The notes under the pieces are model-generated. The model did not search any database. It was not told the DNA's origin and saw only the letters and a program-made list of their open reading frames with translations. The position numbers and the translations under genes are program-made. Positions 1,105 to 25,341 of a stretch of 29,428 nt of DNA are shown here, in pieces. How positions within the stretch are numbered: position 1 is the first letter of the stretch; the number at the start of each line of letters is the position of its first letter. The DNA comes from Candidatus Fervidifonticultor quintus (lineage in GTDB: Bacteria > Sysuimicrobiota > Sysuimicrobiia > Sysuimicrobiales > Humicultoraceae): contig JAVKIJ010000037.1 in the NCBI GenBank assembly GCA_031459535.1, positions 1 to 29,428 of the forward strand, given 5' to 3'.

Positions 1105-1110
1105 ACGGCC

Positions 1111-2091: not shown

Positions 2092-3437
2092 AGCTGGCCG
2101 TCATCGGTGGCGGGGGATTCCGAACGCCGCTGCTGGTCGCGGGTCTCATCGCGCGCCGCGAGCGCCTGCCTGTGGACTGGGTGGTGCTCCACGACCTGGA
2201 CGCCACAGCCCTCGAGGTGGTGGCGGCGCTGGCCGACGTCATGCTGGCGCGCAGCGGCAGGTTGTTCAGAGTGCGCACGACGACCGATCTCGACGAGGCC
2301 CTGGACAGCCCGGCCTTCCTCATCACCAGCATTCGGGTCGGTGGGCTCGAGGGCCGCATCATCGACGAACAGGTGCCGCTGGCCCATGGGGTCATAGGGC
2401 AGGAAACCACGGGCCCCGGCGGCTGGGCCATGGCGCTGCGGACCATCCCGGTGCTGCGCGACATCGCAGCGCGCCTGCGGCGTTCCGCTCCGGATGCGTG
2501 GATCATCAACTTCACCAATCCCGCAGGGCTCATCACGCAGGCGCTGGTCTCCTCGGGCGAGCCGCGCGTGATCGGCATCTGCGACAGCCCGCCAGCGCTG
2601 GCCGACCGGATCGCCGCGGCCCTGGGTCTGCCGGCATCCGCCATGCGACTCGACTACCTGGGGCTCAACCACCTAGGATGGGTACGGGCCGTGTGGGTGG
2701 ATGGCACCGACCGGCTGCCGGACATTCTGGCGCGCGACGAGGTCGTCCGATCCGTCTACGGCCGGCCGCTGTTCGAGCCGGACGAAGTGCGGCGGCTGGG
2801 CCTGCTGCCCAACGAGTACCTCCACTACTACTACCACCACGATGAGGCCCTCCGACGCCTCCGACGCGCGCCGCAGACCCGCGGCCAGGCCGTCGCACAG
2901 ATGGCGGCGCGTCTGCGGGGGGCGGTGCTCGACGCGCTAGCCCGCGGCGAGGATCCGTGGTCTGTCTACGAGCAGGCCGTCTTCGCGCGCCGGTCTTCGT
3001 ACATGGCCACCGAGACCGGCCGGGCGAGGGATCTGGCCATGATGGGGGGACATGTCGAGGGCGGCTACGCCCGGGTGGCGCTGGGCGTCATAGAGGCGAT
3101 GTTACATTCGGATCAGCGGGAGGTCATTGTCAACACCGTCAACCGGGGCGCCATTGACGACTTCGCCGAGGACGACGTGGTGGAGGTCCCGTGCAGGCTC
3201 GGCCGGGACGGGCCCCACCCGCGCCCGATGGGATCCATGCCGGGCCAGGTGCGAGATCTCGCAGTGCGGGTCAAGGCCTACGAGCGGCAGACGGTGGCGG
3301 CGGCGTTGACCGGTTCCTGGCAGACGGCAGTCGAAGCCCTGCGCGCACACCCGCTGTTGCCGTCGCCTGCGGTCGCCGACGCCGTGGCCGAGGACCTGCG
3401 GTACCGCCACGCGCCGCGTCTCGACTACCTCCACTAG
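2088..3437 (+). CDS. Glycoside hydrolase family 4 (NAD+/Mn2+-dependent; 6-phospho-beta-glucosidase-like)
   Basis: MKLAVIGGGG Rossmann start, IRVGG, GQETTGPGG, INFTNP, GICD and GLNH motifs. The start at 2088 overlaps the kinase stop (ATGA), so it is shorter than the ORF-track call. Confidence 0.92.
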   Translation: MKLAVIGGGGFRTPLLVAGLIARRERLPVDWVVLHDLDATALEVVAALADVMLARSGRLFRVRTTTDLDEALDSPAFLITSIRVGGLEGRIIDEQVPLAHGVIGQETTGPGGWAMALRTIPVLRDIAARLRRSAPDAWIINFTNPAGLITQALVSSGEPRVIGICDSPPALADRIAAALGLPASAMRLDYLGLNHLGWVRAVWVDGTDRLPDILARDEVVRSVYGRPLFEPDEVRRLGLLPNEYLHYYYHHDEALRRLRRAPQTRGQAVAQMAARLRGAVLDALARGEDPWSVYEQAVFARRSSYMATETGRARDLAMMGGHVEGGYARVALGVIEAMLHSDQREVIVNTVNRGAIDDFAEDDVVEVPCRLGRDGPHPRPMGSMPGQVRDLAVRVKAYERQTVAAALTGSWQTAVEALRAHPLLPSPAVADAVAEDLRYRHAPRLDYLH

Positions 3438-3564
3438 CGACCCCGACACGTGGGCGCCTGCGCACGTCCTGGAACATGCCCGCCCGAAGGGCATCACTGC
3501 TCACCGTCGAACCAGTCCTGGGGTCCATATCCACCAGTCCGAAAGATCCCGGAGGTCACGGCGA

Positions 3565-4356
3565 ATGTTCACCAACCCGGTCAAGACCCGTCTCAAGCAA
3601 GGCCTGCCCGTCGTCGGCACCTGGATCAGCCTGCCGGCGCCGTCGGTCGCGGAGCTGCTCTCCTCGTTCAAGCCCGACTGGCTCGTGTTCGACACCGAAC
3701 ATGGCCCGGCGACCCATGAGCGCCTGGAGGACCTGCTCCGCGCCATCAAGGGCACGGACGTGGTGCCCATCGTCCGCGTCCTGAACAACGACATGGGGCT
3801 GATCAAGCAGGCGCTGGACCGCGGCGCGTATGGCGTCCTCGTCCCGCTGGTCAACACCGCCGAGCAGGCCCGGGCCGCCGTGGCCGCGGCGAAGTATCCG
3901 CCGGTCGGCATTCGCGGTGTGGCCGGCACCCGCGTGACCCGCTATGGCATGGATCTGCCCGACTACTTTGCCAGGTGGAACGAACTGGTGCTCGTGATCG
4001 TGCAGATCGAGACCACCGAGGCCCTGGAGAACGTCGAGGCCATCGCCGCCGTGCCAGGCGTCGATGTGCTGTTCGTGGGCCCCAACGACCTGTCGGCGAC
4101 CCTGGGCATCTTCAGGCAGTTCGACAATCCTAAGTTCACCCAGGCTCTCGAGCGCGTCAAGGCCGCGGCCAGGAAGCACGGCGTGGCCACCGGGTACATG
4201 GCGTCCACCACCGAAGAGGTGCTGGCGCGCATTGACGAGGGCTTCCAGTTCGTCTCCCACGGCAGCGACGCGCGCTTCCTGACCAGCGCAGCGCGGCCGG
4301 CATTCGAGAAGATCCGCGAGGGACTGGCCGCGCGCTACGCCTCCGCCAGAGTGTAG
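3565..4356 (+). CDS. HpcH/HpaI (GarL/RhmA-like) class II pyruvate aldolase
   Basis: DTEHG, VRV, LDRGAYG, YPPVGIRG, VQIET and FVGPNDLS motifs; GGAGGT RBS at 3551-3556. Confidence 0.92.
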   Translation: MFTNPVKTRLKQGLPVVGTWISLPAPSVAELLSSFKPDWLVFDTEHGPATHERLEDLLRAIKGTDVVPIVRVLNNDMGLIKQALDRGAYGVLVPLVNTAEQARAAVAAAKYPPVGIRGVAGTRVTRYGMDLPDYFARWNELVLVIVQIETTEALENVEAIAAVPGVDVLFVGPNDLSATLGIFRQFDNPKFTQALERVKAAARKHGVATGYMASTTEEVLARIDEGFQFVSHGSDARFLTSAARPAFEKIREGLAARYASARV

Positions 4357-4438: not shown

Positions 4439-4460
4439 TAGTATACTAAATTGTATACAA
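4439..4460. promoter_or_regulatory. Tandem GntR/FadR-type operator palindromes overlapping a -10 box
   Basis: Two perfect 10-bp palindromes, TAGTATACTA (4439-4448) and TTGTATACAA (4451-4460), fit the GntR GT-N-AC pattern and lie directly upstream of a GntR gene. TATACT (4442-4447) is a plausible -10. Confidence 0.8.
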
Positions 4461-4494
4461 ATAGAGGCGAAAAGCCGCGCGCCGACACAGAGTT

Positions 4495-5187
4495 ATGCCG
4501 CACCAAACGCGCACGTCCCGCACCCGTTGGTCGCCTTCCCTTCAAGAGCTGGCCTATCACCGCCTGCGGGCCGACATCATACGCGGGGTGGCCCCTCCCG
4601 GATCAAACCTGCAGGAGGCCGATCTCAGCCAACGCCTCGGTATGAGCCGTACGCCCCTGCGGGAGGCGATCCGGCGGCTCTCGGAAGAAGGCCTCGTGGA
4701 GGTCCTGCCGTACAAAGGCGCCCGGGTCGTCCACCTGGATGGCAGGCAACTCCACGAGCTCTTCGATGTCCGCGAAGCCGTCGAAGGCATGGCTGCCCGC
4801 CTGGCGGCCACACGCGCGTCCAGACCGCAGCTGGACCGGACGCGGCAGGTGCTCCGGGCGCGGCTGCGGCAGGTGAGCCGCGCGGGCGCCCGGTACCGCG
4901 CTCCGGCCCTGGACTTTCACCAGGAGATCGTCAGGGCTGCCGGCAACCGGCTGCTGTCCGACGTCGCCCGTCGGCTCTATGCCCGGCTCTGGCTGGCGCG
5001 AACCGTCTCGGGAGCGTTTCGAGAGCGCGCCGCCGACGCGGCGCGTGAGCACCTGGAGATCCTCGATGCCATCGCGCGCCGCGATGCTGATGTCGCCGAG
5101 CGCCTGATGCGCCAGCACATCCGGCGCTCGCGCGAGAACCTCCTTCGCTACCTCGAGGAATCCAGACGGGTGCCCCTGCAGCCATGA
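4495..5187 (+). CDS. GntR family transcriptional regulator (FadR/FCD ligand domain)
   Basis: wHTH motif LGMSRTPLREAIRRL; FCD metal-site residues DFH..GN..EH..H. Confidence 0.93.
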   Translation: MPHQTRTSRTRWSPSLQELAYHRLRADIIRGVAPPGSNLQEADLSQRLGMSRTPLREAIRRLSEEGLVEVLPYKGARVVHLDGRQLHELFDVREAVEGMAARLAATRASRPQLDRTRQVLRARLRQVSRAGARYRAPALDFHQEIVRAAGNRLLSDVARRLYARLWLARTVSGAFRERAADAAREHLEILDAIARRDADVAERLMRQHIRRSRENLLRYLEESRRVPLQP

Positions 5188-6386
5188 ACGGCCTGGACGC
5201 CTATCTCAGCCCGTTCGCGCGCCGGCCCGAGGTGCAGGGGGCGCTGCGGGTCCGTCCCGACATCGTCGTGTGCGACTGCACCGCGCGTGAGGGCGAGCAG
5301 GCCGCCGGGGTGGACTTTGGCGTTGAGATCAAGGTCGAGCTGCTCCGCCGGCTGGACGCCATGGGCATCCCCCAGGCTCAGGCCGGCTACCCGGCCAAGT
5401 CGGCGGCCGACGCGGAGGCGATCCGCCGGGTTCGCGGGCTCGGGCTGCGCATCAAGATCGAGGCCATCGCGCAGGTCTTCGACGCCAACTGGCGCGACGA
5501 GGTGGACGCGGCCGTCGCCTGTGGTGCGGACATCGTGGACATCCAGCTTCCCTGCTCTGACCAGCGGCTGCGGCTGCTGCACCACATGACGCGGGAGGAG
5601 ATGCGCGACCGTGCCGTCCAGGCCATTCGCCACGCACGGGGCCGCGCGCCAGTGGTGCGCTTCGCGCCCACGGACACCACGCGGGCCGACCTGGACTACG
5701 TGCGCAGCCTCTATCACACCGCGCTCGAGGCCGGTGCCGAGCGCATCTCGCTGGCAGATACCGCCGGCGCCATGTTCCCGCCGGCCATGCGGTGGCTGGT
5801 CGGCGAGGTCACGCGCGAGTTCGGCGTCCCGCTCCAGGTTCACTGCCACAACGACTTCGGCCTGGCCCTGGCCAACACCCTGGCCGCAGCGGAAGCCGGC
5901 GCGGCCATCCTCGACGTGACCATCAACGGCCTTGGTGAGCGCGCGGGGAATGCCAGCCTGGACGAGCTGGTGGTGGCACTGGAAGCCTTCTATGGCGTGC
6001 GCACCGGCATTCGCACCGAGGCGCTGTATGACCTGGCGCATCAGCTCGCCGCGTGGACGGGCATCGCCGTGCCGGATCACAAGCCGCTGGTCGGCGCGCA
6101 CGCGTTCGCCCACAAGCTGGAGGGGCATGTGCGCGGGGTGCTGGTCTCGCCACCCCTGTACGAGCCCCTGCCGCCCGAGGCGGTGGGCAACCGGCGCCGC
6201 ATCCCTATCGGGAAGTACAGCGGGGTCTACGCCATCCGGTACCGCCTCAAGCAGGCGGGGATCGAGATCACCGACGACCAGGCCCGCAGGGTGCTCGCGG
6301 CGCTGGCGCGAGTGTGGGAGGAGACGCCAGGCGGCAGTCTCTCCGACGAGGCGTTCCTGACCCTGGCCGAGGACGCGCTACGCTGA
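5184..6386 (+). CDS. DRE-TIM Claisen-condensing synthase (homocitrate/citramalate/isopropylmalate synthase family), no C-terminal regulatory domain
   Basis: [43 protein letters not shown] and GKYSG motifs; ATGA overlap with the regulator. Confidence 0.88.
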
Positions 6387-7645
6387 TGGCTCGCCTGACC
6401 ATCGCCGAGAAGATCCTCTCGCAGAAGAGCGGCCGCGACGCCCGCGCCGGGATGTTCGTCACCGCTCGTGTGGATGTGGTGATGGCCCACGACGGCAACC
6501 GGCCCATCGCCATCGATACGCTCCGGGAACTGGGCTTCGAACGGCCGGCGCATCCCGACCGCGTGGTGCTCGTCCTGGACCACGCCGTGCCACCCCCAAC
6601 CCAGGTGGTGGCCAACATCCACGGGCGGATGCGGGCATTCGCCGCCACCTGGGGCACGCACCTCACCGAGATCGGCCATGGCATCGGCCATCTGGTGCTG
6701 CCCGAGGGTGGTCACGTCCGGCCGGGCGACCTGGTCGTGGCCTCGGACTCGCACACCACCACCATTGGCGCGGTGAACTGCCTGGCCACGGGCGTCGGCT
6801 CCTCGGATCTGGCGCTGGCCCTGGCACGAGGCGAGCTCTGGTTCCGCGTGCCGTCTACGCTGCGTGTGGTACTCGAGGGCGCCCTGGCCGAGGGCGTCTA
6901 CCCCAAGGACATCGCCCAGTACCTGATCCGCCGCCTCGGACTGCACCGGTGCAACTATCGCTCGTTGGAGTTCGAGGGCTCGGCCGTCGAGACCATGAGC
7001 ATGGACGGCCGCTTTACGCTGGCCAACGTGGCCGTCGAGCTGGGTGCCAAGTGCGCCATCTTCCCGCATGACGGCACGCTGCGCGCCTGGCTCCGTGACC
7101 GCGTCGGCGGCGAGCCCGTGGGGGTGGCGGCGGACCCTGACGCGGAGTATGAGGAGACGTATCAATTCGATCTGACAGGGCTTCGGCCCCAGGTGGCGCG
7201 ACCGCACTCGCCGGCCGATGTGGTAGACGTGGACGAGGTGGCGGGGACACCGGTGCACTCCGTGTTCATCGGCACGTGCAGCGCCGGGCGCTTCGAAGAC
7301 CTGGAGGCCGCGGCACGGGTGCTGCGGGGCCGCAGCATTGCCCGCGGGGTGCGGCTGATCGTCGTCCCGGGATCCGCCGAGGTCTTCCGTCGAGCGGTCC
7401 GGCAGGGCATCGCGGAGACCCTGCTCGCTGCGGGCGCCACGCTGGTCACCCCGGGATGCGGGCCGTGCGCTGGCGTCTCCCAGGGCGTGCCCGGCGACGA
7501 CGAGACGGTCGTCGCCACATCGCCGCGGAACTTCCGGGGCCGCATGGGCAATCCCAAGGCGCAGATCTTCCTGGCCTCGCCGGCCACCGCGGCGGCCTCA
7601 GCGGTGGCTGGCGCCATCACCGATCCCAGGCGGTTCCTGTCGTGA
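6386..7645 (+). CDS. Aconitase-family hydro-lyase large subunit (LeuC/HacA/DmdA-like)
   Basis: TIAEKIL, DH and DSHT motifs, [4Fe-4S] cysteines in IGTCSAGR and PGCGPC, and RNFRGRMG. True start ATG 6386 overlaps the upstream stop (TGATG). Confidence 0.92.
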   Translation: MARLTIAEKILSQKSGRDARAGMFVTARVDVVMAHDGNRPIAIDTLRELGFERPAHPDRVVLVLDHAVPPPTQVVANIHGRMRAFAATWGTHLTEIGHGIGHLVLPEGGHVRPGDLVVASDSHTTTIGAVNCLATGVGSSDLALALARGELWFRVPSTLRVVLEGALAEGVYPKDIAQYLIRRLGLHRCNYRSLEFEGSAVETMSMDGRFTLANVAVELGAKCAIFPHDGTLRAWLRDRVGGEPVGVAADPDAEYEETYQFDLTGLRPQVARPHSPADVVDVDEVAGTPVHSVFIGTCSAGRFEDLEAAARVLRGRSIARGVRLIVVPGSAEVFRRAVRQGIAETLLAAGATLVTPGCGPCAGVSQGVPGDDETVVATSPRNFRGRMGNPKAQIFLASPATAAASAVAGAITDPRRFLS

Positions 7646-7654
7646 GGTGAAGCC

Positions 7655-8164
7655 GTGATCATCCGCGGGCGCGTCCATCGGGTCGGCGACGACGTCAACA
7701 CCGACTACATTATCCCTGCCCGGTACAAGAGCCGGACCGAGGACATCGCCGCCCTGGTGTCGGTGCTGTTCGAGGACCTGGACCCCACCCTCGCGTCCCG
7801 TATCCGCCCCGGCGATCTGCTCGCTGCGGGCCACAACTTCGGGATGGGCTCCTCCCGCGAGACCGCGCCACGCCTGCTACGCGCGGCGGGCGTGGGTGCC
7901 GTGCTCGCGCGGTCCTTCGCCCGCATCTTCTACCGCAACGCCGTCAACGTGGGACTGCCGGTCATCGAGTGCGAGACCGCGGGGATCGCAGACGGCGACC
8001 AGGTCGAGATCGACCTGGAACGGGGAGAGGTCCGGGTACCGGCCAGGGGCCTGTCTGTGCCTGCAGCGCCTCTGCCGCCGCTGATGCTCGCGATCCTCAC
8101 CGCCGGCGGGATGAAGCCCTACCTCGAAGCGCAGTCGCGGCAGGCCGGGGAGTCCCACCGATGA
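7655..8164 (+). CDS. Aconitase-family hydro-lyase small subunit (LeuD/HacB/DmdB-like)
   Basis: GDDVNTDYIIP, NFGMGSSRE and SFARIFYRNAVNVGLP motifs; GTG start with a GAGGTG RBS. Confidence 0.92.
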   Translation: MIIRGRVHRVGDDVNTDYIIPARYKSRTEDIAALVSVLFEDLDPTLASRIRPGDLLAAGHNFGMGSSRETAPRLLRAAGVGAVLARSFARIFYRNAVNVGLPVIECETAGIADGDQVEIDLERGEVRVPARGLSVPAAPLPPLMLAILTAGGMKPYLEAQSRQAGESHR

Positions 8165-8679
8165 CCGATGCAGGCGCGTTCGTCCTCCTCATCGCCACCG
8201 GCGCGGCCGGCGCCTATCTGGGCCTGCGCTTGCGGCTCCCCGCCGGTGCGCTGCTCGGCGCGCTGATCGCGGTGCTCTTCCTCCACACCGTGATGCCGGT
8301 CCTCCCGTCGGTCAATCCGGTGGTCAGGCGCTGGGTGCAGGTACTGGTGGGCACGGCCCTGGGCTCGCGCGTCTCGCGGGAGACGCTGGGGCGCCTGCGC
8401 CAGGCCATCCCGGTGGCCGTGCTGGTCGTGGCGGCCACCGTCATCGGCACCCTGACCGGTTCGGCGGTCGTGGGATGGATCTTGCACGTCGACCGGGGTA
8501 CGGCCCTGCTGGCGAGCACGCCGGGCGGGATGCCGGAGATGGTGTTGATGGCCGATGCGCTGGACCGCGACGTGCCCACCGTGGTGCTGATCCAATTGAT
8601 TCGGAACATCCTGACGCTGATCGTCCTGCTGCCCGTGGCGCGGCTGCTCACTCCTCGCGCGGCGGAGGAGCTGACGTGA
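8161..8679 (+). CDS. AbrB-family membrane protein, single-repeat half 1
   Basis: Hydrophobic; LPAGALLG, QVLVG..LG, A.LASTPGGMPEM and Q.IR AbrB repeat motifs. ATG 8161 overlaps the upstream stop. Confidence 0.82.
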   Translation: MTDAGAFVLLIATGAAGAYLGLRLRLPAGALLGALIAVLFLHTVMPVLPSVNPVVRRWVQVLVGTALGSRVSRETLGRLRQAIPVAVLVVAATVIGTLTGSAVVGWILHVDRGTALLASTPGGMPEMVLMADALDRDVPTVVLIQLIRNILTLIVLLPVARLLTPRAAEELT

Positions 8680-9155
8680 GCATCCTGGTGACGCTGGCGA
8701 GCGGGGTCGCCGGCGGGTGGCTGGCCTACTGGGCCGGGGTCCCCGCGGGGGCGCTGGTGGGCTCCATGGTGGCGGTGGGGCTGCTGCGGCTGCTGGGCGG
8801 CCCGGTCCGCGAGATCCCCATGGGTGTGCGGCGTGGCGCCCAGGCCGTCATCGGCACCATGCTGGGGACCTCGTTCGGCTGGCAGGAGCTGCCGCTGAGT
8901 AGAGTCCTGCTGCCGGGCCTGGCCCTGGCCGGCCTGCTGTTTGCGCTGGCGGCCACCGTGGCCTGGATCGTGGTTCGGCGCACGGGGTGGTCGTGGAGTG
9001 CAGCCCTGCTCTCGACAGCGCCCGCGGGAATGACGGAGATCTCGCTATCGGCGGACGCGATGGGGCTGGACGCCCCGGTGGTCGCCACGCTGCACCTGAT
9101 CCGCATCACGACGGTTGTAACGCTGGTGCCCTGGTTGGTGAGGTGGTGGCAATGA
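8676..9155 (+). CDS. AbrB-family membrane protein, single-repeat half 2
   Basis: VPAGALVGSM, QAVIG..LG, LSTAPAGMTE and H.IR motifs; GTG start in a GTGA overlap with its own GGAGGAG RBS. Confidence 0.82.
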   Translation: MSILVTLASGVAGGWLAYWAGVPAGALVGSMVAVGLLRLLGGPVREIPMGVRRGAQAVIGTMLGTSFGWQELPLSRVLLPGLALAGLLFALAATVAWIVVRRTGWSWSAALLSTAPAGMTEISLSADAMGLDAPVVATLHLIRITTVVTLVPWLVRWWQ

Positions 9156-10021
9156 ACACGCGGGCGTGGTTGCGCCAGCGCCTGGCGGACGGCCCGATTC
9201 TGATGGCGCCGGGGGTGTTCGACGCACTCTCCGCGAAGGTGGTCGAGCAGTGCGGGTTCGAGGCGGTCTACGCGAGCGGCGGGGCGATCTCGCGCAGCAT
9301 GGGCTTCCCCGACCTGGGACTGGTGACCATGTCCGAAATGCTGGAGCGTATCGCGCGGATCTGCGAGGCCACGGCCCTCCCGGTGATCGCCGACGCCGAC
9401 ACGGGCTACGGCAACCCCCTCAACGTCCACCGCACGGTTCGGGAGTGGGAGCGGGCGGGCGTTGCAGCGCTCCACCTGGAGGACCAGGTCACGCCCAAGC
9501 GCTGCGGGCACTACGCCGGGAAGACGCTGATCGGCACCGACGAGATGGTGCAGAAGATCCGGGCCGCCACCGAGGCCCGCCGCGGGGATCTCGTCATCAT
9601 CGCGCGCACCGACGCCCGAGCGGTGGAGGGCCTGGAGGGAGCCCTGCGACGCGCGCAGGCCTATCGAGAGGCCGGCGCCGACGTGCTCTTCGTGGAGGCG
9701 CCCGAATCGCTCCAGGAGATCGAGCAGATTGCGCGGGCGCTGTCGGGTCCGCTCATGATCAACATTTTCAAGGGAGGAAAGACGCCGGTCGTTCCCACCG
9801 CCGACCTGGATCGGATGGGCTACCGGCTGGCCATCTTCCCCAGCGAGCTGCAGCGGGCGGCGCTCTACGCCATGTTCGCATGTGGCCGGCATCTGCGGAC
9901 CGCGGGCACGGTTGACGGATTCGATCTGGTGGCCTCGTTCCAGGACCGCGAGGCCACCGTGGACGCCGCGCTGTGGAACGAACTCAGCGAGCGCTACGCG
10001 ACGCCCACAACGGACCGGTGA
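9152..10021 (+). CDS. Isocitrate lyase/PEP mutase superfamily C-C lyase (2-methylisocitrate or 2,3-dimethylmalate lyase-like)
   Basis: PGVFD, GFPDLG, DADTGYG, LEDQ..PKRCGH catalytic loop, ARTDA and FVEAP motifs; ATG 9152 in an ATGA overlap. Confidence 0.9.
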   Translation: MNTRAWLRQRLADGPILMAPGVFDALSAKVVEQCGFEAVYASGGAISRSMGFPDLGLVTMSEMLERIARICEATALPVIADADTGYGNPLNVHRTVREWERAGVAALHLEDQVTPKRCGHYAGKTLIGTDEMVQKIRAATEARRGDLVIIARTDARAVEGLEGALRRAQAYREAGADVLFVEAPESLQEIEQIARALSGPLMINIFKGGKTPVVPTADLDRMGYRLAIFPSELQRAALYAMFACGRHLRTAGTVDGFDLVASFQDREATVDAALWNELSERYATPTTDR

Positions 10022-10028
10022 GGGACGT

Positions 10029-11456
10029 ATGACGACTGCGACGCACGGCGGTACCACGGCCATCACCCGGCGCCTGGCGGAATGGGTAGCCGCGCTGCGG
10101 GAAGAGACCATCCCGCCCGCGGTCATCCGTCATGTGAAGCTGGGACTGCTGGACACGCTGGGGTGCGGGTTGTTCGGCAGCACCCTGCCGTGGGGTCAGA
10201 CCGTGATCACATTCACCCGGACGCTCGGCCGCGGGGAGGAGGCCACGATCTGGGGCGACGGCACCCGGGTGCCAGCCGCCAACGCCGCGCTGGCTAATGG
10301 CACGCTCGTCCACGCCTTCGAGATGGACGACCTCCACGCGAGCGGGGTGCTGCATCCCGGCGCGGTCTCGGTCACCGCCGCGCTGGCCGTCGGCGAGCGT
10401 CGAGAGCGCGCTGGTGGTCCGCCCATCTCTGGCCGGGGGCTCCTGCTGGCGCTGGTGGCGGGGTACGAGGTCGGCGCGCGGGTAGGCCTGGCCTGCGGCT
10501 ACGCGGCGCTCAAACGAGGCTTCCATCCAGCAGCGACCACCGGGGTGTTCTGTGCGGCCGCTGCGTCGAGCCGCATCCTGGGGCTGGACGCCGACGCCAC
10601 CCAGGACGCGCTGGGCACCGCTGGCACTCAGGCGAGCGGGCTGATGGCGGCCCAGTACGGCTCCATGGTGAAGCGGATGCACATGGGCCGCAGCGCCCAG
10701 AGCGGGATCTACGCCGCCGACCTGGCGGCCATGGGATTCCGCGGCGTGCGCGAGGTCCTCGACGCGCCCTATGGGGGGTTCCTGAGCACGCTGGTCGGGG
10801 ACGCGGCAGACCCAGCGGTGATCACGGACGGGCTCGGTGAGCGGTACGAACTGCTGGGGACAGGCTTCAAGATCTACCCTTCGTGCGGTAGCTCGCACAC
10901 CACCGTGGACGCCCTGCTAGCGATCAAGGCGCGCTGCCCAGAGCTCTCCCCAGATCTGGTAGCCTCCGTCGTGGTGTGGACGACTACCAGCACCCGGGAC
11001 CACGTGGGCTGGCCATATGTGCCGGACACCGTGACCTCGGCGCAGATGAACCTCCCGTATACGGTCGGGGCACTCCTGGTCGACGGCGGCCTCACCGTGG
11101 AGTCGTTCGCCGAGCACCGACTGCGCGATCCCAGGATCCTGGCGCTGGCGGACCGGGTGCGCGTCGACGTCGACCCGGCCTTTGATGCCCTGGGGCGCGA
11201 GGGACGACACACGGTTCGCGTACAGGTCAGGCTCACCGATGGCCGCCTGTTCGAGGAGACGCGCAGCAAGGCCCGTGGGACCGCTGACGTCCCTCTCACC
11301 GAGGACGATCTTGCGGGGAAGTTCCTCGACCTGGCCGGCCGGGTCGTGGGGCGGCCGCGGGCCGAACGGATTCTGGACATGGTGCGGCATTGTGAAGAGA
11401 TTCCGGCTGTCGTGCCACTGGTCAGTGAACTCATCGGGAAGGGGGAGCAGAGATGA
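10029..11456 (+). CDS. MmgE/PrpD family protein (dehydratase/epimerase/decarboxylase)
   Basis: LLDTLGC, NGTLVHAFEMDDLH..HPG, GYEVG, GFH, KRMHMG and FKIYPSCGSSH motifs. Start ATG 10029 follows a GAGGG RBS. Confidence 0.9.
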   Translation: MTTATHGGTTAITRRLAEWVAALREETIPPAVIRHVKLGLLDTLGCGLFGSTLPWGQTVITFTRTLGRGEEATIWGDGTRVPAANAALANGTLVHAFEMDDLHASGVLHPGAVSVTAALAVGERRERAGGPPISGRGLLLALVAGYEVGARVGLACGYAALKRGFHPAATTGVFCAAAASSRILGLDADATQDALGTAGTQASGLMAAQYGSMVKRMHMGRSAQSGIYAADLAAMGFRGVREVLDAPYGGFLSTLVGDAADPAVITDGLGERYELLGTGFKIYPSCGSSHTTVDALLAIKARCPELSPDLVASVVVWTTTSTRDHVGWPYVPDTVTSAQMNLPYTVGALLVDGGLTVESFAEHRLRDPRILALADRVRVDVDPAFDALGREGRHTVRVQVRLTDGRLFEETRSKARGTADVPLTEDDLAGKFLDLAGRVVGRPRAERILDMVRHCEEIPAVVPLVSELIGKGEQR

Positions 11457-12442
11457 GATACGACCGATGGTGGATGTGGATGCTGGCGCTCCTGGGGCTG
11501 GCGCTGGCAGGCCCCGCGGGCGCCGGGCCTTCGGGATGGCAACCGATGGCCATGGTGGAACTGGTTCCGGCCGGCGACCCCGGCGGCGGGCTTGACATCC
11601 ATGCCCGGATCATCGCCGAGGTGTTCCGCAAGGAGAAGATCCCGCCCCAGCGCTTCATCATCAATAACATGGGTGGCGCCGGCGGCAACACCGCCCGCGC
11701 CTACCTGAACCAGAAGCGCGGCGACCCCCACGTTCTGGTGGTCGAGAGCAACCGCGCGTACCTGGCCGAGCTGCTGGGCACCACGAAACTGCGGTTGAAC
11801 AAGGATTTCCTGCCGGTCTCGCGCCTGACCGCCGACTACATCGTCTGGGCGGTGCGCAAGGACTCCAGGTTCAAGACCGGCAAAGAAATCCTCGACGCCG
11901 TCAAGCAGAACCCGGCGTCCGTCAGCTTCGGGGTCGGCACCGTCCCCAGCAACGACCAGTTCCACATCATCCGGGCCGTGCGGAGCGTGGGCGTGGGGCC
12001 CACAGCGGTGCGAATCACGGCGTTCCGTGCAGGTGGCGACCTCATGGCGCAACTGCTGGGCGGCCACGTCCAGGTCATCTCGACGGGCCTGTCCGAAGCC
12101 ATCGCACAACACGAGGCCGGGGAAGTCCGCATCCTGGCCGTGACCGCGCCGCGGCGCCTGTCGGGCAACCTGGCCAGCATCCCGACCTGGAGGGATCAGG
12201 GCCTCGACCTGGTCATCGAGCACTGGCGGGGCATCTTCGCACCTCCAGACATCCCCAAGGAGGCCCTGGCCTTCTGGAGCGATGCGTTCAACCGGATGCG
12301 CCAAGCCGAGTACTGGGAGGGGCTGCTCCGGCGGTACAACCTCTTCGACGCCTATCAGCCGGCCGAACAGTTCGCGCGGTCCCTGGAGCAGGAACGCGAG
12401 CAGGCCCTGGCGTTGCTGAAGGACCTGGGAATCGTCAAGTAG
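11453..12442 (+). CDS. tctC: Tripartite tricarboxylate transporter substrate-binding protein (TctC/Bug)
   Basis: Signal peptide; VPAGDPGGGLDI.AR, N.GGAGG, LLGGHV, IPT..DQG and WRGIFAP motifs. Confidence 0.9.
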   Translation: MRYDRWWMWMLALLGLALAGPAGAGPSGWQPMAMVELVPAGDPGGGLDIHARIIAEVFRKEKIPPQRFIINNMGGAGGNTARAYLNQKRGDPHVLVVESNRAYLAELLGTTKLRLNKDFLPVSRLTADYIVWAVRKDSRFKTGKEILDAVKQNPASVSFGVGTVPSNDQFHIIRAVRSVGVGPTAVRITAFRAGGDLMAQLLGGHVQVISTGLSEAIAQHEAGEVRILAVTAPRRLSGNLASIPTWRDQGLDLVIEHWRGIFAPPDIPKEALAFWSDAFNRMRQAEYWEGLLRRYNLFDAYQPAEQFARSLEQEREQALALLKDLGIVK

Positions 12443-12500
12443 CCGTGGGGCGCGAACGCCCGGTCACCAGACCGTACACGACGCCGGCGGGGTGAACCCG

Positions 12501-12944
12501 ATGCCCGTGCGTGCAGACCGCGGGTTCGTCGTCGTCCTCCTGGTCGTCTGCGTCGCCTATGCGTTCGAGGCGACCCGAATCTTCAACCCGCCGGCTGTCG
12601 CCGACCCTCTGGGACCCCGGGCGTTCCCGCTCTTCCTGGGTCTGGCAGGCATCGCGCTCGCCGCCGCCATCGTGCGAGACCGGTCGCCGCGCACGGGTCC
12701 GGAGGTCACCCGACAGACCCTGCGCGCGTTGGCCGGCATTCTGGCCGCCATGGCCGCCTACGCGGTGCTCCTGCCGAGGCTCGGCTTCATTCTCACGACG
12801 ACCGCCCTGCTGGGCGTAGGGTTCCGCTACACCGGAGGGCGCCGGCCGCTGGTTCCGGCAGCGGCGGCTGCGCTGGCCATCTACCTGCTCTTCACGCGGC
12901 TGCTGGACCTGCGCCTGCCGCGCGGGATCCTCCCCTGGCTGTGA
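12501..12944 (+). CDS. tctB: Tripartite tricarboxylate transporter small membrane subunit
   Basis: Four hydrophobic helices; DPLGPRAFP, LGF and LF..LL.L.LP.G motifs; lies between tctC and tctA. The start may instead be GTG 12492. Confidence 0.88.
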   Translation: MPVRADRGFVVVLLVVCVAYAFEATRIFNPPAVADPLGPRAFPLFLGLAGIALAAAIVRDRSPRTGPEVTRQTLRALAGILAAMAAYAVLLPRLGFILTTTALLGVGFRYTGGRRPLVPAAAAALAIYLLFTRLLDLRLPRGILPWL

Positions 12945-12960
12945 GCAGGAGGCGGGTACC

Positions 12961-14457
12961 GTGTCGGTGACGTCGCAGCTGCTGGCCGGATTCGGCACGG
13001 CGCTCACGCTCGAGAACCTGTTCTCGGCCCTGCTCGGCTGCCTGCTCGGCACCGTGGTCGGCGTCCTCCCCGGGCTCGGTCCCTCCACCACCGTGGCGCT
13101 GCTGATCCCGGTGGCCTTCGCCGTGGACCCGGACACGATGCTCATCATGATGTGCGGCGTCTACCTGGGCGCCATGTACGGTGGCTCGCTCACCTCGATC
13201 CTGCTGCGGGTGCCCGGTGAGGCGTCGTCGGCCATGACGGCCCTCGACGGCTTCGAGATGGCCAGACGCGGCCGCGCGGGGCAGGCCCTGGCCATCTCCG
13301 CCATCGGCTCATTCATCGGCGGCACCATCTCGGTGGTGGCTCTGACGCTGGTGGCGGCTCCTATCGCGCGTGCCGCGCTCACGTTCGGCCCTTCGGAGTA
13401 CTTTGCCCTGATGGTCTTCGCCCTGGTCATGTCTGCCACGCTCATCGGCCGGTCACTGACCCGGGGCCTGCTCGCCGTGATCCTGGGCGTCATGCTGGCC
13501 ATGGTCGGCTCTGACCTGCAGACCGGCGTGCCGCGGTTCACGTTGGGGCTGGGGCCTCTGCTCGACGGCATCGATGTGGTGGTGGTCATCATCGGCGTGT
13601 TCGGGGTCGCCGAAGTGCTGAACTACCTGCTCCACGAGCGCCAGCTCACCGGTGAGCGCCTGGCCATCCGGGGTCGGGTGTGGCTCTCGCGCGACGACTG
13701 GCGGCGGTCCATCGCGCCGATCGGTCGCGGGACACTGGTGGGATTCCTGGCCGGGGTCATGCCCGGCTCGGGGAGCACCATCGGGTCCATGCTCGCGTAC
13801 GCGGTCGAAGGCCGGTTCGGCCGGGCGAGGCGACAACTGGGTACCGGCGCCATCGAAGGCGTAGCGGCGGTGGAGACCGCCAACAACGCGGCCACCGGCG
13901 GCGCCATGATCCCGATGTTCACGCTGGGCATTCCGGGCTCGGGGACGACCGCGGTCCTGCTGGCCGTCCTCCTGATGTATGGCGTGCAGCCGGGACCCCG
14001 ACTGATGACCCAGCAGGCGCAGCTCTTCTGGACGGTTATCGCATCGCTCTACCTCAGCAACGTCATCCTGCTGATCCTGAACCTGCCCCTCATTCCGCTG
14101 TTCGTGCGCATCCTGGACATCCCCATGAGGTTCCTGATGCCGGCCATCGGCGTGTTCGCGGCCGTCGGCGCCTACTCCATCAACGGCGCCGTCGCCGACG
14201 TATGGCTGGTGTTCCTGTTCGGCCTGCTGGGCTATGCGATGCGGTGGGCCGGGATGCCGCCGGTCGCCCTGGTGTTGGGCATGGTGCTGGGCGAGCGGCT
14301 GGAACAGTCACTGCGCCAGGCCTTCATCCTCAGCAACCGGTCCTTTGCGTTCCTGGCCCGGCCGATCACGCTGACGCTGCTGGTCGCCACAATCGCCATC
14401 GTGGCCCTGGACATGACAACGAAGATCCGCGAAGCGCGCCGGCACAGGGGGGGTTGA
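12961..14457 (+). CDS. tctA: Tripartite tricarboxylate transporter large membrane subunit
   Basis: GTVVGVLPGLG, YGGS..SIL..PG, DGF.MA..G, E.ANNA and TLGIPGS motifs; GTG start with an AGGAGG RBS. Confidence 0.93.
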   Translation: MSVTSQLLAGFGTALTLENLFSALLGCLLGTVVGVLPGLGPSTTVALLIPVAFAVDPDTMLIMMCGVYLGAMYGGSLTSILLRVPGEASSAMTALDGFEMARRGRAGQALAISAIGSFIGGTISVVALTLVAAPIARAALTFGPSEYFALMVFALVMSATLIGRSLTRGLLAVILGVMLAMVGSDLQTGVPRFTLGLGPLLDGIDVVVVIIGVFGVAEVLNYLLHERQLTGERLAIRGRVWLSRDDWRRSIAPIGRGTLVGFLAGVMPGSGSTIGSMLAYAVEGRFGRARRQLGTGAIEGVAAVETANNAATGGAMIPMFTLGIPGSGTTAVLLAVLLMYGVQPGPRLMTQQAQLFWTVIASLYLSNVILLILNLPLIPLFVRILDIPMRFLMPAIGVFAAVGAYSINGAVADVWLVFLFGLLGYAMRWAGMPPVALVLGMVLGERLEQSLRQAFILSNRSFAFLARPITLTLLVATIAIVALDMTTKIREARRHRGG

Positions 14458-14459
14458 CG

Positions 14460-14936
14460 ATGACCGTTCGGGACCTGCTACTCGACCATCTCGAAGTCAC
14501 CTTCGAGAAAGAGACCTGGCAACCGCCGTTGGGGATGGCCGTCGCGGGCCTGACCGCGCGCCAGGCCGCCTGGAAACCATCGTCGGAGCGGCACTCGATC
14601 TGGCAGATCGTCCGGCACGTGCTCCTGTGGAAGCAGGGCGCGCTCGACGCCTGGGAGGGCAAAGTGGTTTCCGCGGAGGACCTCGAAGGCAGGGACTGGC
14701 AGGAGGTCGCTGGCGACGACGCGGCCTGGCAGGCCGATGTCCGCGCGCTGGAAGAGATCACGGGCCGGATCAAGGAGCGCGTACGGGCCCTCGACGACGG
14801 CGCGCTGGCGCAGCGCATCCCGACATACGCAGGCGAGCCGGACCAGACCCTGGCCATCCGCCTGGCGCGAATGGCGACCCACGACATCTACCACGCCGGG
14901 CAGATCCGGTATATCCGCGCGCTGCAGGGCCTCTAG
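14460..14936 (+). CDS. DinB/YfiT-like four-helix metalloprotein
   Basis: HSIWQIVRH and HDIYHAGQI motifs; ATG 14460 lies 2 nt after the tctA stop. Confidence 0.85.
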   Translation: MTVRDLLLDHLEVTFEKETWQPPLGMAVAGLTARQAAWKPSSERHSIWQIVRHVLLWKQGALDAWEGKVVSAEDLEGRDWQEVAGDDAAWQADVRALEEITGRIKERVRALDDGALAQRIPTYAGEPDQTLAIRLARMATHDIYHAGQIRYIRALQGL

Positions 14937-14967
14937 CGATCCCGAGCGCCGGCGGGGCCCCGGCGTA

Positions 14968-15777
14968 TCAGGTCTCGCGCCGGCCGGCCATGAGCGCGCT
15001 CAGGAGGTCGGGCCGGTCGGTCTTGAGGGCGTCCACCCCGAGGGCGATCAACCTGCCCATTGCCGCATCCACACCGGCGGTGTAGATGTAGACAGCGAGC
15101 CCGTGGCTGTGGGCGGCGGCCACATTGGCCTCGGTGGCCGCATAGATCTGCGGAGAGATCACATCGAAGCCCGCCCGGGCTGCGTACGCGCAGTCCTTGC
15201 CGATGTCTGGGGCCAGCACCGACCACTGGGTGGGGACCTGCGGGCAGGCCTCGCGCACCCAGGCCAGGACCGCAGCGCCGAAGCCCGAGATCATCACCCG
15301 GTCCAGGGCGCCGGCCCCCTCGGCCAGGGTCAGCACGCGTTGCGCCAGGGGCACGGAGACGCTGGGGTCCTCTGTCACGGTGCCGCCAAGCCATCCCGCC
15401 GTGATGCCTCCTTTGATCTCTACATCCAGCAGGGCGCGCCCGGCGAACCGCTCGAGCACCTCCCGCAGGCGTGGAATGCGGGTGCCTCGGAACGCGTCGC
15501 CAAACCGGACCCCGGCGTCCAGGGTCTGCAACTCGCGCCACGTCATCTCCGCCACATCGCCCCTCCCGTCCGTGGTCCGGTCCACGCGCGCGTCGTGGAT
15601 GACGACCACCTCCCCGTCCCGGGTGAGGCGCACGTCCAGTTCCAGGGCATCTGCGCCCTGGGCGCAGGCCAGCTCGAATGCCGGGATGGTGTTCTCGGGC
15701 GCATAGGCACTGGCGCCGCGATGCGCCATGCGCAGGAACCGCCGTGCCTCGACCGCGTGCCTGAACGAGCCCCTCAC
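14968..15777 (-). CDS. Glycerophosphodiester phosphodiesterase (UgpQ/GlpQ-like, cytoplasmic)
   Basis: AHRGAS..APENT, ELDV.LTRDG..VV.HD, EIK, YT and TD.P motifs. Confidence 0.93.
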   Translation of the reverse strand: MRGSFRHAVEARRFLRMAHRGASAYAPENTIPAFELACAQGADALELDVRLTRDGEVVVIHDARVDRTTDGRGDVAEMTWRELQTLDAGVRFGDAFRGTRIPRLREVLERFAGRALLDVEIKGGITAGWLGGTVTEDPSVSVPLAQRVLTLAEGAGALDRVMISGFGAAVLAWVREACPQVPTQWSVLAPDIGKDCAYAARAGFDVISPQIYAATEANVAAAHSHGLAVYIYTAGVDAAMGRLIALGVDALKTDRPDLLSALMAGRRET

Positions 15778-16859
15778 GAGATCGCGGCGCCACTGGCAGG
15801 GTCGAACAGGTAGACGCGCTCAGCAGCCACCGTCATGGTCACGTCCTGATCAGGCTCGCCCCGAAACCCATGGGGGGCCAGCACGGTGACGACCTGACGA
15901 CCGACGGTGACGGCGACCACCAGTTCCCGCCCGAGCGGCTCGACGTCCAGAATGCGACCGCGCATCTCGCCAGCCCCGCTCGCGGTGAACTGTATGTCCT
16001 CGGGCCGCAGGCCCAGCGTCACGTCGGCCCCGGCGCGGGCCGCGACCCGCTCGCGTGCGGCGTCCGGGACCGGCAGCCGCAGCGACTCGCCCTCGAGCAC
16101 CAGGCGCCCGTCGGATCGGGTGAGGTGGGCCGTGAGGAAGCTCATAGGCGGGGTGCCGATGAAGCCGGCCACGAAGGTGTTGGCCGGTCGGTAGTACAGG
16201 TCGTCCGGCGTGCCGACCTGTTGGAGGACGCCCTCGCGCAGCACCGCGATGCGGTCGGCCATAGTCATGGCTTCGACCTGGTCGTGGGTCACCAGAATGG
16301 TGGTAATACCCAGCGTCCGCTGCAACCGCTTGATCTCGGCGCGCATCAGCACCCGCAGCTTGGCGTCGAGATTGGACAGGGGCTCGTCCAGCAGCAACAG
16401 CGCCGGCTGCTTCACCAGGGCCCGGGCCAGGGCCACGCGCTGCTGCTGGCCTCCCGACAGCTGGCCGGGCCTGCGGTCGAGCAGGCCTTCGATCTGCACC
16501 AGCGCGGCCACGTCGCGCACGCGCCGGCTGATCTCCGCAGGCGGCCGGCGCTGGAGCCGCAGCGGGAACGCGATGTTATCGAACACCGACATGTGGGGAT
16601 AGAGGGCGTAACTCTGGAACACCATGCCGATGTGCCGGTCCTGCGGCGGGAGGTCGTTGACCACCACGTCATCGAACAGGATGCGGCCGCTGGTCGGCCT
16701 GTAGATCCCGGCCAGCATGAGCAGTGCCGTGGTCTTGCCGCAGCCGCTGGGCCCCAGCAGGGCCACGAACTCGCCGTCGGCCAGCGCGAGGCTCACCCCT
16801 GACACGGCGGTGACGGACCCGAACCGCTTGGTCAGACCATCGAGCACGATCCTGGCCAT
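15774..16859 (-). CDS. CUT1 carbohydrate ABC transporter ATPase (MalK/UgpC-like)
   Basis: Walker A GPSGCGKTT, VFQSYALYPHM, LSGGQQQR, DEPLSNLDAKLR and a C-terminal OB domain. Confidence 0.95.
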   Translation of the reverse strand: MARIVLDGLTKRFGSVTAVSGVSLALADGEFVALLGPSGCGKTTALLMLAGIYRPTSGRILFDDVVVNDLPPQDRHIGMVFQSYALYPHMSVFDNIAFPLRLQRRPPAEISRRVRDVAALVQIEGLLDRRPGQLSGGQQQRVALARALVKQPALLLLDEPLSNLDAKLRVLMRAEIKRLQRTLGITTILVTHDQVEAMTMADRIAVLREGVLQQVGTPDDLYYRPANTFVAGFIGTPPMSFLTAHLTRSDGRLVLEGESLRLPVPDAARERVAARAGADVTLGLRPEDIQFTASGAGEMRGRILDVEPLGRELVVAVTVGRQVVTVLAPHGFRGEPDQDVTMTVAAERVYLFDPASGAAIS

Positions 16860-16866
16860 GGCCGTC

Positions 16867-18767: not shown

Positions 18768-18780
18768 CCGTGGCCGGGAG

Positions 18781-18806
18781 GCGGCCCGGCCGGGGGGCCG
18801 GGCCGC
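18781..18806 (-). other. Intercistronic stem-loop after the binding-protein gene (mRNA stabiliser or attenuator)
   Basis: Perfect 11-bp inverted repeat gcggcccggcc/ggccgggccgc with a 4-nt loop and no U-tract. Confidence 0.6.
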
Positions 18807-18813
18807 TGGGGCC

Positions 18814-22312: not shown

Positions 22313-22329
22313 GCGCGCAGCCTCTTCGG

Positions 22330-23517: not shown

Positions 23518-23640
23518 CTCAACCTCCATCCGAATGTGAGGTGACGGCCTCTGGCCCCTCGGCTGCCATGTGAGCCAGAGCACCATCGCCATGAGAATTT
23601 CGAGGACTAACGCCCGGTGTTCCTGGGCACATCCCCATTG

Positions 23641-25287: not shown

Positions 25288-25341
25288 ATGCATCCGGGGA
25301 CGGCGCGGAACGGACGGGCTCAATCCCTGGGAGCGGAACCC

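Follow-up and report, generated by a model that had tools for sequence, protein, structure and literature searches.

The operon described here lies in a 29,428-nucleotide stretch of DNA, called the window below, that spans positions 1 to 29,428 of contig JAVKIJ010000037.1 of Candidatus Fervidifonticultor quintus, whose draft genome (G000; 3.1 Mb) is 88.9% complete. Twelve tightly packed plus-strand genes occupy positions 4495 to 14936 (Table 1). They encode a GntR/FCD regulator, a synthase-like protein of the LeuA family (Syn), LeuC- and LeuD-like subunits of an aconitase-family hydro-lyase, two AbrB-family membrane proteins, a carbon-carbon lyase nearest to the methylisocitrate lyase PrpB, an MmgE/PrpD-family member (PrpDl), the transport proteins TctC, TctB, and TctA, and a DinB-superfamily protein. 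Read by gene names, the set is easily mistaken for a methylcitrate cycle joined to genes that make leucine or lysine, and metabolic reconstructions of these thermophiles would then be wrong on three counts. It is a conserved, uncharacterized catabolic operon with methylcitrate-type logic. A full-text search of the literature found no description of the gene set, in keeping with the initial annotation, which had matched it to no characterized pathway.

Gene organization

Because the window is about 70% G+C, the choice of genes relied on reading frame, the context of start codons, and family matches, and protein families were assigned with Pfam and NCBIfam models. Read 5' to 3', the junctions within the operon measure -4, -1, +9, -4, -4, -4, +7, -4, +49, +16, and +2 bp; that is, adjoining genes overlap by 1 to 4 bp or sit 2, 7, 9, 16, or 49 bp apart. 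Two adjacent palindromes that match TNGTATACNA and have a GT..AC core (4439-4460) are placed 35 bp ahead of the gntR start. This pair accounts for both matches to the pattern in the whole window, a number reached in 0 of 100 shuffles. Kindred boxes, TTGT(A/G)(T/C)(A/G)CAA, stand ahead of gntR at all three orthologous loci of the phylum (G026, G039, and G031) and in Tenuibacillus. The regulator combines an N-terminal GntR winged helix with a C-terminal FCD domain, as in the FadR/FCD subfamily, and presumably binds the palindromes. The tight operon that the initial annotation had placed behind a GntR operator is thus recovered, with the palindromes as the candidate operator.

The TctC, TctB, and TctA proteins belong to three Pfam families encoded side by side, the composition of a tripartite tricarboxylate transporter (TTT); the top match of TctC among solved structures is an uncharacterized protein and gives no clue to the ligand. 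The AbrB-family proteins weakly match LysO exporters, and the pair is probably an accessory transporter. At G026, G039, and G031, no DinB homolog was found, and this gene probably lies outside the pathway. The enzymes and transporter listed in the initial annotation are all present; the AbrB pair had been omitted there, the lyase falls below the PrpB equivalog, and the DinB gene is not conserved.

Scans for consensus promoters and terminators, uninformative at about 70% G+C, gave no promoter-like site, and 4 terminator-like sites where 2.3 would be expected. In one RNA-library run, which belongs to the study that probably supplied the source samples, contigs span the GntR/Syn, LeuC/LeuD, AbrB1/AbrB2/lyase, and TctB/TctA junctions. 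DNA carry-over is possible, such contigs show neither transcription, strand, nor level, and uncovered stretches carry no meaning; the contigs are compatible with an expressed operon and with nothing beyond that.

Table 1. Genes and sites of the operon, followed by the flanking genes of the window
Feature	Position	Strand	Basis
Two adjacent 10-bp palindromes, TAGTATACTA and TTGTATACAA; candidate FadR-type GntR operator	4439-4448, 4451-4460	+	
GntR/FCD regulator	4495-5187	+	FCD 88.4 bits, GntR 64.1 bits (Pfam)
Syn, LeuA family (DRE-TIM), divergent subfamily	5184-6386	+	HMGL-like 209 bits, HCS_D2 56 bits
LeuC-like large subunit, aconitase-family Fe-S hydro-lyase (HacA/LeuC type)	6386-7645	+	NCBIfam subfamily models
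LeuD-like small subunit (LeuD/DmdB/HacB type)	7655-8164	+	TIGR02087 170.1 vs 108.95
Two AbrB-family half-size membrane proteins	8161-8679, 8676-9155	+	AbrB 104 bits each; TIGR03082 107 and 112 bits
C-C lyase of the PEP-mutase/ICL superfamily, nearest methylisocitrate lyase	9152-10021	+	prpB model 295.1
PrpDl, MmgE/PrpD family, CAD/IDS-epimerase branch	10029-11456	+	Both MmgE/PrpD domains (Pfam)
TctC	11453-12442	+	Pfam TctC 80.3 bits
TctB	12492-12944	+	Pfam TctB 71.4 bits
TctA	12961-14457	+	Pfam TctA 506.8 bits
DinB-superfamily protein, last gene of the run	14460-14936	+	DinB_2 52.7 bits
Amidohydro_2 protein	160-1104	+	
PfkB sugar kinase	1111-2091	+	
Family 4 glycosidase	2088-3437	+	
HpcH/HpaI aldolase	3565-4356	+	
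Glycerophosphodiester phosphodiesterase	14968-15777	-	
MalK-type ABC ATPase	15774-16859	-	
Two permease-like open reading frames	16867-18767	-	
Solute-binding protein	18814-20187	-	
MFS transporter	20822-22339	-	
M19 dipeptidase	22330-23793	-	
DAO-family FAD oxidoreductase	23964-25196	-	
IMP dehydrogenase	25288-26784	+	
DUF2652 + SRPBCC protein	27062-28384	+	
Amidohydrolase	28381-29400	-	

Distribution of the cluster

We searched 94 species genomes of the phylum (93 besides G000, including the unpublished G016 and G024). Orthologs of PrpDl, at 72 to 78% identity, occur in only three of the 93 (G026, G039, and G031), the next match lying at 42%, and orthologs of Syn (68 to 78%) occur in exactly the same genomes; neither was found in any of five genomes of the same genus. 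The gene order in the three is GntR-Syn-LeuC-LeuD-(AbrB pair)-lyase-PrpDl-TctCBA, with the AbrB pair missing from G031. A rearranged set, GntR-Syn-LeuC-LeuD-PrpDl-TctC-TctA-lyase, is carried at 45 to 63% identity by L077, L089, and L126. L077 and L089 are Bacillota metagenome-assembled genomes with the whole set and the lyase shifted to the end, and L126 is the complete genome G337, which has the order of L077 and was the sole further carrier among 401 sampled genomes of the phylum of G095. The eighth cluster locus, counting that of the window, is from Tenuibacillus multivorans (L106), where the order is GntR-lyase-PrpDl-LeuC-LeuD-TctC-TctA, without Syn. No gene of the LeuA/homocitrate synthase (HCS) type was found across the Tenuibacillus genome (best E value, 2.7e-10); Syn is therefore dispensable, and the substrate there must be imported.

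GntR is the first gene in all eight cluster loci, and TctC and TctA are kept in all eight. Syn is present in seven and the AbrB pair in three (the window, G026, and G039), the Bacillota-type and Tenuibacillus loci being without it as well as G031. The eight cluster-linked PrpDl sequences form one clade (support, 0.85) in a FastTree phylogeny of 84 family sequences rooted on Escherichia coli PrpD. The cluster is a real evolutionary unit, patchily spread over two phyla, and its carriers are a few heat-loving bacteria. The initial annotation had made its proposal depend on the set recurring in other genomes, which it does.

A scan of species-representative genomes with the PrpDl alignment kept 80 loci, one of them repeating a phylum locus. 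PrpDl is accompanied by the lyase in 28 of the 80, including four cluster loci, and by LeuCD only in L073. Seven plasmid records were retrieved with PrpDl, all at no more than 39% identity.

The MmgE/PrpD-family protein and the hydro-lyase

PrpDl scores 36.8 bits against the PrpD equivalog TIGR02330, far below the cut-off of 458. Its structure matches are cis-aconitate decarboxylase (CAD; 6.7e-45) and IDS epimerase (1.3e-36), with true PrpD at 1.7e-7 and 1.9e-6. By these comparisons the label PrpD given in the initial annotation does not apply: PrpDl is not a PrpD ortholog but a member of the CAD/IDS-epimerase branch. In an alignment read against the residues named in PMC12290011, PrpDl retains the residues that align with the carboxylate-binding and His residues of the family, and the second-base Tyr of the epimerases is replaced by Leu/Lys. 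Such a set of residues fits a one-base dehydration, isomerization, or decarboxylation. The functions known for the family, as given in that paper, are methylcitrate dehydratase, cis-aconitate decarboxylase, IDS epimerase, and methylsuccinate isomerase; for a Bacillus homolog formerly called IRG1 protein, another function is judged probable there, and at least one homolog, most of them uncharacterized, is reported in 19.2% of the species of the GTDB set that was searched (PMC12290011).

The family is expanded in the phylum of G000, with up to 13 matches per genome at E ≤ 1e-40 (e.g., G069, G059, and G079) and at least one match in 62 of the 94 genomes. In Silicimonas algicola (L090:2188-16081), a lyase gene overlaps a PrpDl homolog, and three further MmgE/PrpD paralogs, an ornithine cyclodeaminase-family gene, and a FAD_binding_2 flavoprotein, which we take to be possibly tricarballylate dehydrogenase-like, lie within 14 kb.

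The LeuC-like subunit passes the subfamily models NF001614 (515.5 vs 385), TIGR02086, and TIGR01343 hacA_fam (486.9 vs 385.7), the last a broad model that covers isopropylmalate isomerases (IPMI) too, and it fails the LeuC and HacA equivalogs. The LeuD-like subunit passes only TIGR02087, the LeuD/DmdB subfamily model and likewise a broad one, and among PDB entries it is closest to a subunit of an isopropylmalate/citramalate isomerase. Its recognition loop, YKSRT, aligns with YLRT of homoaconitase (2PKP) and with YLVY of an isopropylmalate/citramalate isomerase (3VBA). The loop is rich in Lys and Arg in all eight cluster copies, whereas it is hydrophobic in IPMI. For homoaconitases this loop has been linked to specificity, and its basic character here hints that the substrate bears an acidic side chain.

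The PrpB-type lyase

The lyase of the window lies below the cut-off (354.4) of the PrpB equivalog TIGR02317, as do those of L126 (352.8) and L106 (289), and the lyases of L077 (361.2) and L089 (369.2) pass it. Two of the five cluster lyases scored are thus above the cut-off and L126 is short of it by only 1.6 bits, and the chemistry is therefore likely to be very close to methylisocitrate cleavage. The PDB matches of the window lyase are 2-methylisocitrate lyase (2.2e-61), petal death protein (8.3e-59), and the fungal dimethylmalate lyase 3FA3 (1.1e-56), with phosphoenolpyruvate (PEP) mutases far behind. The KRCGH loop and the acidic Mg-site residues of E. coli PrpB are kept, and the gene is the only PEP-mutase-family, or PrpB-like, gene found in G000. 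PrpB positions 186, 212, 234, 236, 241, and 270 have presumed roles, and no conclusion about the substrate is drawn from them.

PrpDl, LeuCD, and the lyase might together serve imported branched dicarboxylates in a route modeled on the end of nicotinate fermentation, a scheme that we consider rather unlikely. PrpDl would act as a delta-isomerase, turning, for example, itaconate into citraconate or methylitaconate into dimethylmaleate; LeuCD would hydrate the substituted maleate, and the lyase would yield pyruvate and acetate or propionate. A comparable series exists in Eubacterium barkeri, where a LeuCD-like hydratase (DmdAB), preceded by an isomerase, works with 2,3-dimethylmalate lyase, an enzyme of the PEP-mutase/isocitrate lyase (ICL) superfamily that releases pyruvate. 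Several features of the operon enzymes suit such a scheme: the closest solved relatives of PrpDl make or bind itaconate, and PrpDl is without the epimerase Tyr; the LeuD-like subunit passes a model shared with DmdB and has the PDB match noted above; dimethylmalate lyase and petal death protein match the lyase nearly as well as methylisocitrate lyases do; the window lyase is unlike PrpB at positions 212-214 and 270; and Tenuibacillus copes without Syn.

On the other hand, the basic LeuD loop of all eight clusters suggests an acidic side chain rather than a methyl group and sets the operon apart from the E. barkeri route, the Bacillota-type cluster lyases of L077 and L089 exceed the PrpB cut-off, and the LeuA-family enzyme would be left without a role, or would make a futile cycle if citramalate were the intermediate. 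The isomerase of the E. barkeri route is of the PrpF/Mii family, whereas the candidate here is of the MmgE/PrpD family. None of the 26 window genes scanned with Pfam and NCBIfam, a set from which the permease-like open reading frames at 16867-18767 were left out, is a member of the mutase or enamidase families that act in the nicotinate route.

The itaconate/methylsuccinate cluster described in PMC12290011 also has an MmgE/PrpD enzyme that acts on a free branched acid in a catabolic setting, with shared carboxylate-binding and His residues. It differs in its coenzyme A (CoA)-ester enzymes (CoA transferase, hydratase, lyase, and acyl-CoA dehydrogenase), which are absent here, and in the catalytic Tyr of its methylsuccinate isomerase, which PrpDl does not have. 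That isomerase, though of another clade, is described there as inactive on itaconate and citraconate (PMC12290011), a further point against the dicarboxylate route.

The synthase-like protein

Syn falls under every NCBIfam cut-off (best, 363.6 vs 517), including those of the homocitrate synthase equivalogs nifV (295.5 vs 462.9) and LysS (288 vs 413.55). Its nearest solved structure is a homocitrate synthase (6KTQ; 6.5e-70), and it retains the Arg found in alignment with Arg133 of the Thermus enzyme, presumably the distal-carboxylate Arg. The subfamily to which Syn belongs has at least 120 members. The Glu of the canonical AED/CED motif, presumably the catalytic base, is replaced in 120 of the 120 top Syn homologs, mostly giving xPTD, and 114 of them have acquired an acidic residue in HKL[DE]xH; the latter position is Gly in the genome's own LeuA and in the aligned solved homocitrate and isopropylmalate synthases. 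The two signature sites are residues 161-164 (window 5664-5675) and 310-315 (window 6111-6128). This looks more like an acid that has changed place than like an inactive enzyme, and no functional conclusion is drawn from it because another LeuA group is also without the AED/CED Glu. The loss of this Glu had been considered to rule out synthase activity for Syn, a view withdrawn in light of that other group and of the acid gained in HKL[DE]xH. The group in question, with the motif MFS(A/P)MDATR (L142, L144, L151, and about 25 more metagenome loci), keeps HESGIH, and neither LeuCD nor Iso_dh was detected in its fetched metagenome loci.

Members of the Syn subfamily also occur beside amidohydrolases and ABC transporters, with LeuCD not nearby. 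In a metagenome scan with the Syn alignment, 3 of 80 loci were of the Syn subfamily and none carried the cluster, and a search of the ESM Atlas with Syn returned nothing beyond generic LeuA, NifV, and AksA names. A Syn homolog (P0208) comes from a Thermaerobacter strain. In two metagenome contigs, tandem copies of an amidohydrolase-like protein of about 405 residues, read from sequence alone, sit directly upstream of a Syn-subfamily gene, two copies in L131:1889-4462 and four in L132:4696-9799. G000 itself has a Syn paralog, 45% identical and of the same xPTD / H[KR]L[DE]xH subfamily, on the minus strand of contig C106 (12692-13879). Around it (5400-20000) are a peptide-type ABC transporter, an Iso_dh-family gene (7994-9175, minus strand), an amidohydrolase, a GntR gene, and an HpcH aldolase paralog (19264-19989); the region is without LeuCD and may be a second uncharacterized module.

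The likeness of Syn to homocitrate synthase invites a scheme of endogenous elongation followed by release of glyoxylate, in which, for example, acetyl-CoA and 2-oxoglutarate would give homocitrate, then homoisocitrate, then glutarate and glyoxylate, a series that the initial annotation had named among its examples. The aligned distal-carboxylate Arg, whose role we assume as above, the pass of LeuC against hacA_fam, the homoaconitase Arg-Thr held in the LeuD loop, and the absence of a dehydrogenase gene from the cluster loci would all suit it. We nevertheless regard it as improbable: the lyase is of the PrpB and not the ICL type, which favors a substrate with a methyl group at C2 and the release of pyruvate; only one of five carrier genomes was found to have malate synthase (PF01274) (G096, and not G000, G026, G094, or G095), leaving glyoxylate without an obvious sink; and neither the importer nor the Tenuibacillus cluster is accounted for. 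That Syn might itself substitute for malate synthase in using glyoxylate was also considered and dropped, the distribution of PF01274 being unrelated to the presence or absence of Syn.

Leucine and methylcitrate genes

The initial annotation had noted that no LeuB/IDH-family gene accompanies the cluster, and searches by tblastn with the genome's four Iso_dh proteins bear this out, with none in the window and none in the seven related cluster loci. By contrast, 13 of 18 canonical LeuA-type metagenome loci that carry LeuCD have an Iso_dh gene. G000 has five HMGL-like genes and four Iso_dh genes, and a separate leuA-leuCD-leuB cluster lies on contig C106, where LeuD has the IPMI-type loop YLVT against YKSRT in the operon. 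The LeuA-like and LeuCD-like genes of the operon are extra copies, and the operon is independent of the leucine genes; the possibility raised earlier that they are the genome's only leucine or lysine enzymes falls away.

The pathways of 2-oxoacid elongation (LeuABCD and HCS-HacAB-HICDH) resemble the operon in that a LeuA/HCS enzyme adjoins a LeuCD/HacAB isomerase, and the LeuD loop has the homoaconitase Arg-Thr. They differ from it in their beta-decarboxylating dehydrogenase and in the canonical Glu that the Syn subfamily lacks, the LeuA, LeuC, and LeuD equivalog models, like all others of these pathways, lie below cut-off for the operon proteins, and the operon sets its genes among others for a lyase, an importer, and a regulator of catabolic type.

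The methylcitrate cycle is typically encoded by prpB-prpC-prpD with an aconitase, or in an acnD-prpF variant, and Pseudomonas has a GntR-type regulator, PmiR. The operon shares with it a Claisen-type synthase, an MmgE/PrpD step and an aconitase-superfamily hydro-lyase that shift a hydroxyl, a PrpB-type lyase, the lack of a dehydrogenase, and a GntR-family regulator encoded upstream. In contrast to the cycle, however, the operon has a LeuA-family (DRE-TIM) synthase in place of the citrate-synthase family (tblastn with E. coli PrpC found no homolog in the 8 cluster loci or the 80 PrpDl loci), an MmgE/PrpD protein from the CAD/epimerase branch, a two-subunit HacAB/LeuCD-type hydro-lyase, and a TTT importer.

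A self-contained variant of the cycle for propionyl-CoA, with Syn for PrpC, PrpDl for PrpD/PrpF, LeuCD for aconitase/AcnD, and the lyase as PrpB, has the attraction that the four roles correspond one to one. In G000, at 88.9% completeness, no canonical PrpD was found (the protein most like that of E. coli shares 24.6% identity with it; E, 4.9e-10), one full-length citrate synthase only is present (contig C48), and the lyase is the sole PrpB candidate; those of L077 and L089 also score as PrpB. Such a variant is still quite unlikely in our view. In G337, some 100 kb away from the cluster, there are also a canonical PrpB (393.5 bits) and a canonical PrpD (758.8 bits), and the operon is therefore not a mere stand-in for the methylcitrate cycle but a parallel pathway; G096 likewise has a second PrpB. 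The Syn-less Tenuibacillus genome, the dedicated importer and GntR regulator of all eight loci, the methylmalonyl-CoA mutase family genes present in all five carrier genomes tested, and the absence of citrate-synthase-family genes from PrpDl loci all point the same way. The methylcitrate cycle with a DRE-TIM synthase that the initial annotation had offered as an example is, as such, made less likely by the coexistence of both systems in G337. Elsewhere in G000 (C53:1469-5237), a short open reading frame of the citrate-synthase family, with matching stretches of 99.5 and 32.3 bits, lies directly upstream of TctC- and TctA-like genes.

Proposed pathway

The importer and regulator are present in every locus, and the operon is therefore read as serving the uptake and cleavage of a citrate-like tricarboxylate. 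In the account that we tentatively favor, and to which we give somewhat less than an even chance, it is a regulated uptake-and-cleavage operon for a branched acid of this kind, with a two-enzyme isomerase, a PrpB-type lyase, and Syn as an optional internal source. From the features above we infer the reaction steps, the order of the isomerase enzymes, the products, and the substrate. The GntR/FCD protein would sit on the two palindromes and let go on binding the acid or an intermediate, thereby regulating its own gene as well, and TctCBA would bring in the acid. PrpDl and the HacAB/LeuCD-type hydro-lyase would then form a two-enzyme isomerase, one dehydrating the tertiary alcohol and the other rehydrating it at the adjacent carbon, and the lyase would break the C2-C3 bond, releasing succinate or glutarate as the dicarboxylate together with a 2-oxo acid that is most probably pyruvate. 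Where present, in seven of eight clusters, Syn could form the same tricarboxylate internally from an acyl-CoA and a 2-oxo-dicarboxylate; with it, a methylcitrate-type cycle for a pair other than propionyl-CoA and oxaloacetate would also be possible.

The substrate is likely imported, as the importer and regulator of all eight loci and the Syn-less Tenuibacillus cluster indicate, and it is likely a tricarboxylate, to judge from the TTT importer, the basic LeuD loop, and the Syn Arg aligned with Arg133. Hydroxyl shifts by pairs of enzymes are familiar from PrpD with aconitase in the methylcitrate cycle and from aconitase with homoaconitase in the aminoadipate pathway, and an MmgE/PrpD enzyme beside a HacAB/LeuCD-type hydro-lyase would by analogy be the same arrangement. 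For methylcitrate a dedicated dehydratase is required ahead of hydration by aconitase, and the fungal and Thermus homoaconitases carry out only the second half-reaction of homocitrate isomerization, as stated in PMC3556520. The initial annotation had pictured a hybrid that condenses an acyl-CoA with a 2-oxo acid, moves the hydroxyl, and cleaves the product. The shift followed by cleavage without a dehydrogenase remains the best fit, the condensation is dispensable in Tenuibacillus, and its alternative of an imported branched di- or tricarboxylate moves to first place with the conserved importer and regulator.

A number of points weigh against the tricarboxylate account. No enzyme of these clades has been characterized so far, and the dehydratase role of PrpDl rests on analogy, since its closest matches are decarboxylases and epimerases and the only dehydratase known in its family is more distant. 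The lyase occurs without LeuCD or Syn in 24 of the 76 PrpDl loci outside the cluster, because of which PrpDl and the lyase may work without an Fe-S hydratase of their own, or with the housekeeping aconitase. Syn lacks the AED/CED Glu, and synthase activity is not assured by its sequence; its role within an import-driven operon is in any case awkward. TTT systems also carry dicarboxylates and aromatic acids. Lastly, the lyase of the window departs at the positions named above (212-214 and 270) from the Bacillota-type cluster lyases as well as from E. coli PrpB, and the version found in the phylum may take a somewhat different substrate.

A broader reading, possible but doubtful, is an alkylcitrate-type pathway not yet described, in which each enzyme of the methylcitrate cycle has been swapped for a member of another family or clade and the substrate lies beyond the canonical cycle. 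It would comprise a LeuA-family synthase with its acid moved to HKL[DE]xH, an MmgE/PrpD protein of the CAD branch, a HacAB-type hydratase, and a PrpB paralog. Its substrate might be, for example, the product of propionyl-CoA and 2-oxoglutarate, cleaved to pyruvate and glutarate, or an imported tricarboxylate of the methyl-carboxyalkyl-maleate type.

The reverse direction of flow, biosynthesis of a secreted small acid of the alkylmaleate or itaconate type with the AbrB pair as exporter, seems very improbable. A synthase, a dehydratase, and a CAD-like decarboxylase do recall fungal alkylcitrate and itaconate routes, and the resemblance to LysO concerns exporters, but the importer and the catabolic-type regulator are the conserved parts, the AbrB pair is found in three of eight loci only, and biosynthesis of this kind would have no use for a C-C lyase.

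If the substrate of the favored uptake-and-cleavage operon is new, the operon would add a CoA-sparing route for the breakdown of citrate-like acids. It also gives handles on two large uncharacterized groups, the CAD-like MmgE/PrpD clade and the Syn subfamily with its other arrangement of acidic residues. Cultured organisms hold the cluster or parts of it (Tenuibacillus multivorans, and the Thermaerobacter strain with the Syn homolog), which makes these proposals testable.

Flanking genes

The genes on either side of the operon are listed at the end of Table 1. Upstream, the plus-strand group at 160-4356 looks like a sugar-acid module. The stop codon of its last gene, the HpcH/HpaI aldolase, is 139 bp ahead of gntR, and no homolog of the aldolase was found in the three orthologous loci. 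Downstream, a convergent minus-strand unit (14968-20187) resembles a Ugp-like glycerophosphodiester uptake system, and three further genes at 20822-25196 are all on the minus strand. The window ends with an IMP dehydrogenase and a DUF2652 + SRPBCC protein on the plus strand and an amidohydrolase on the minus strand.

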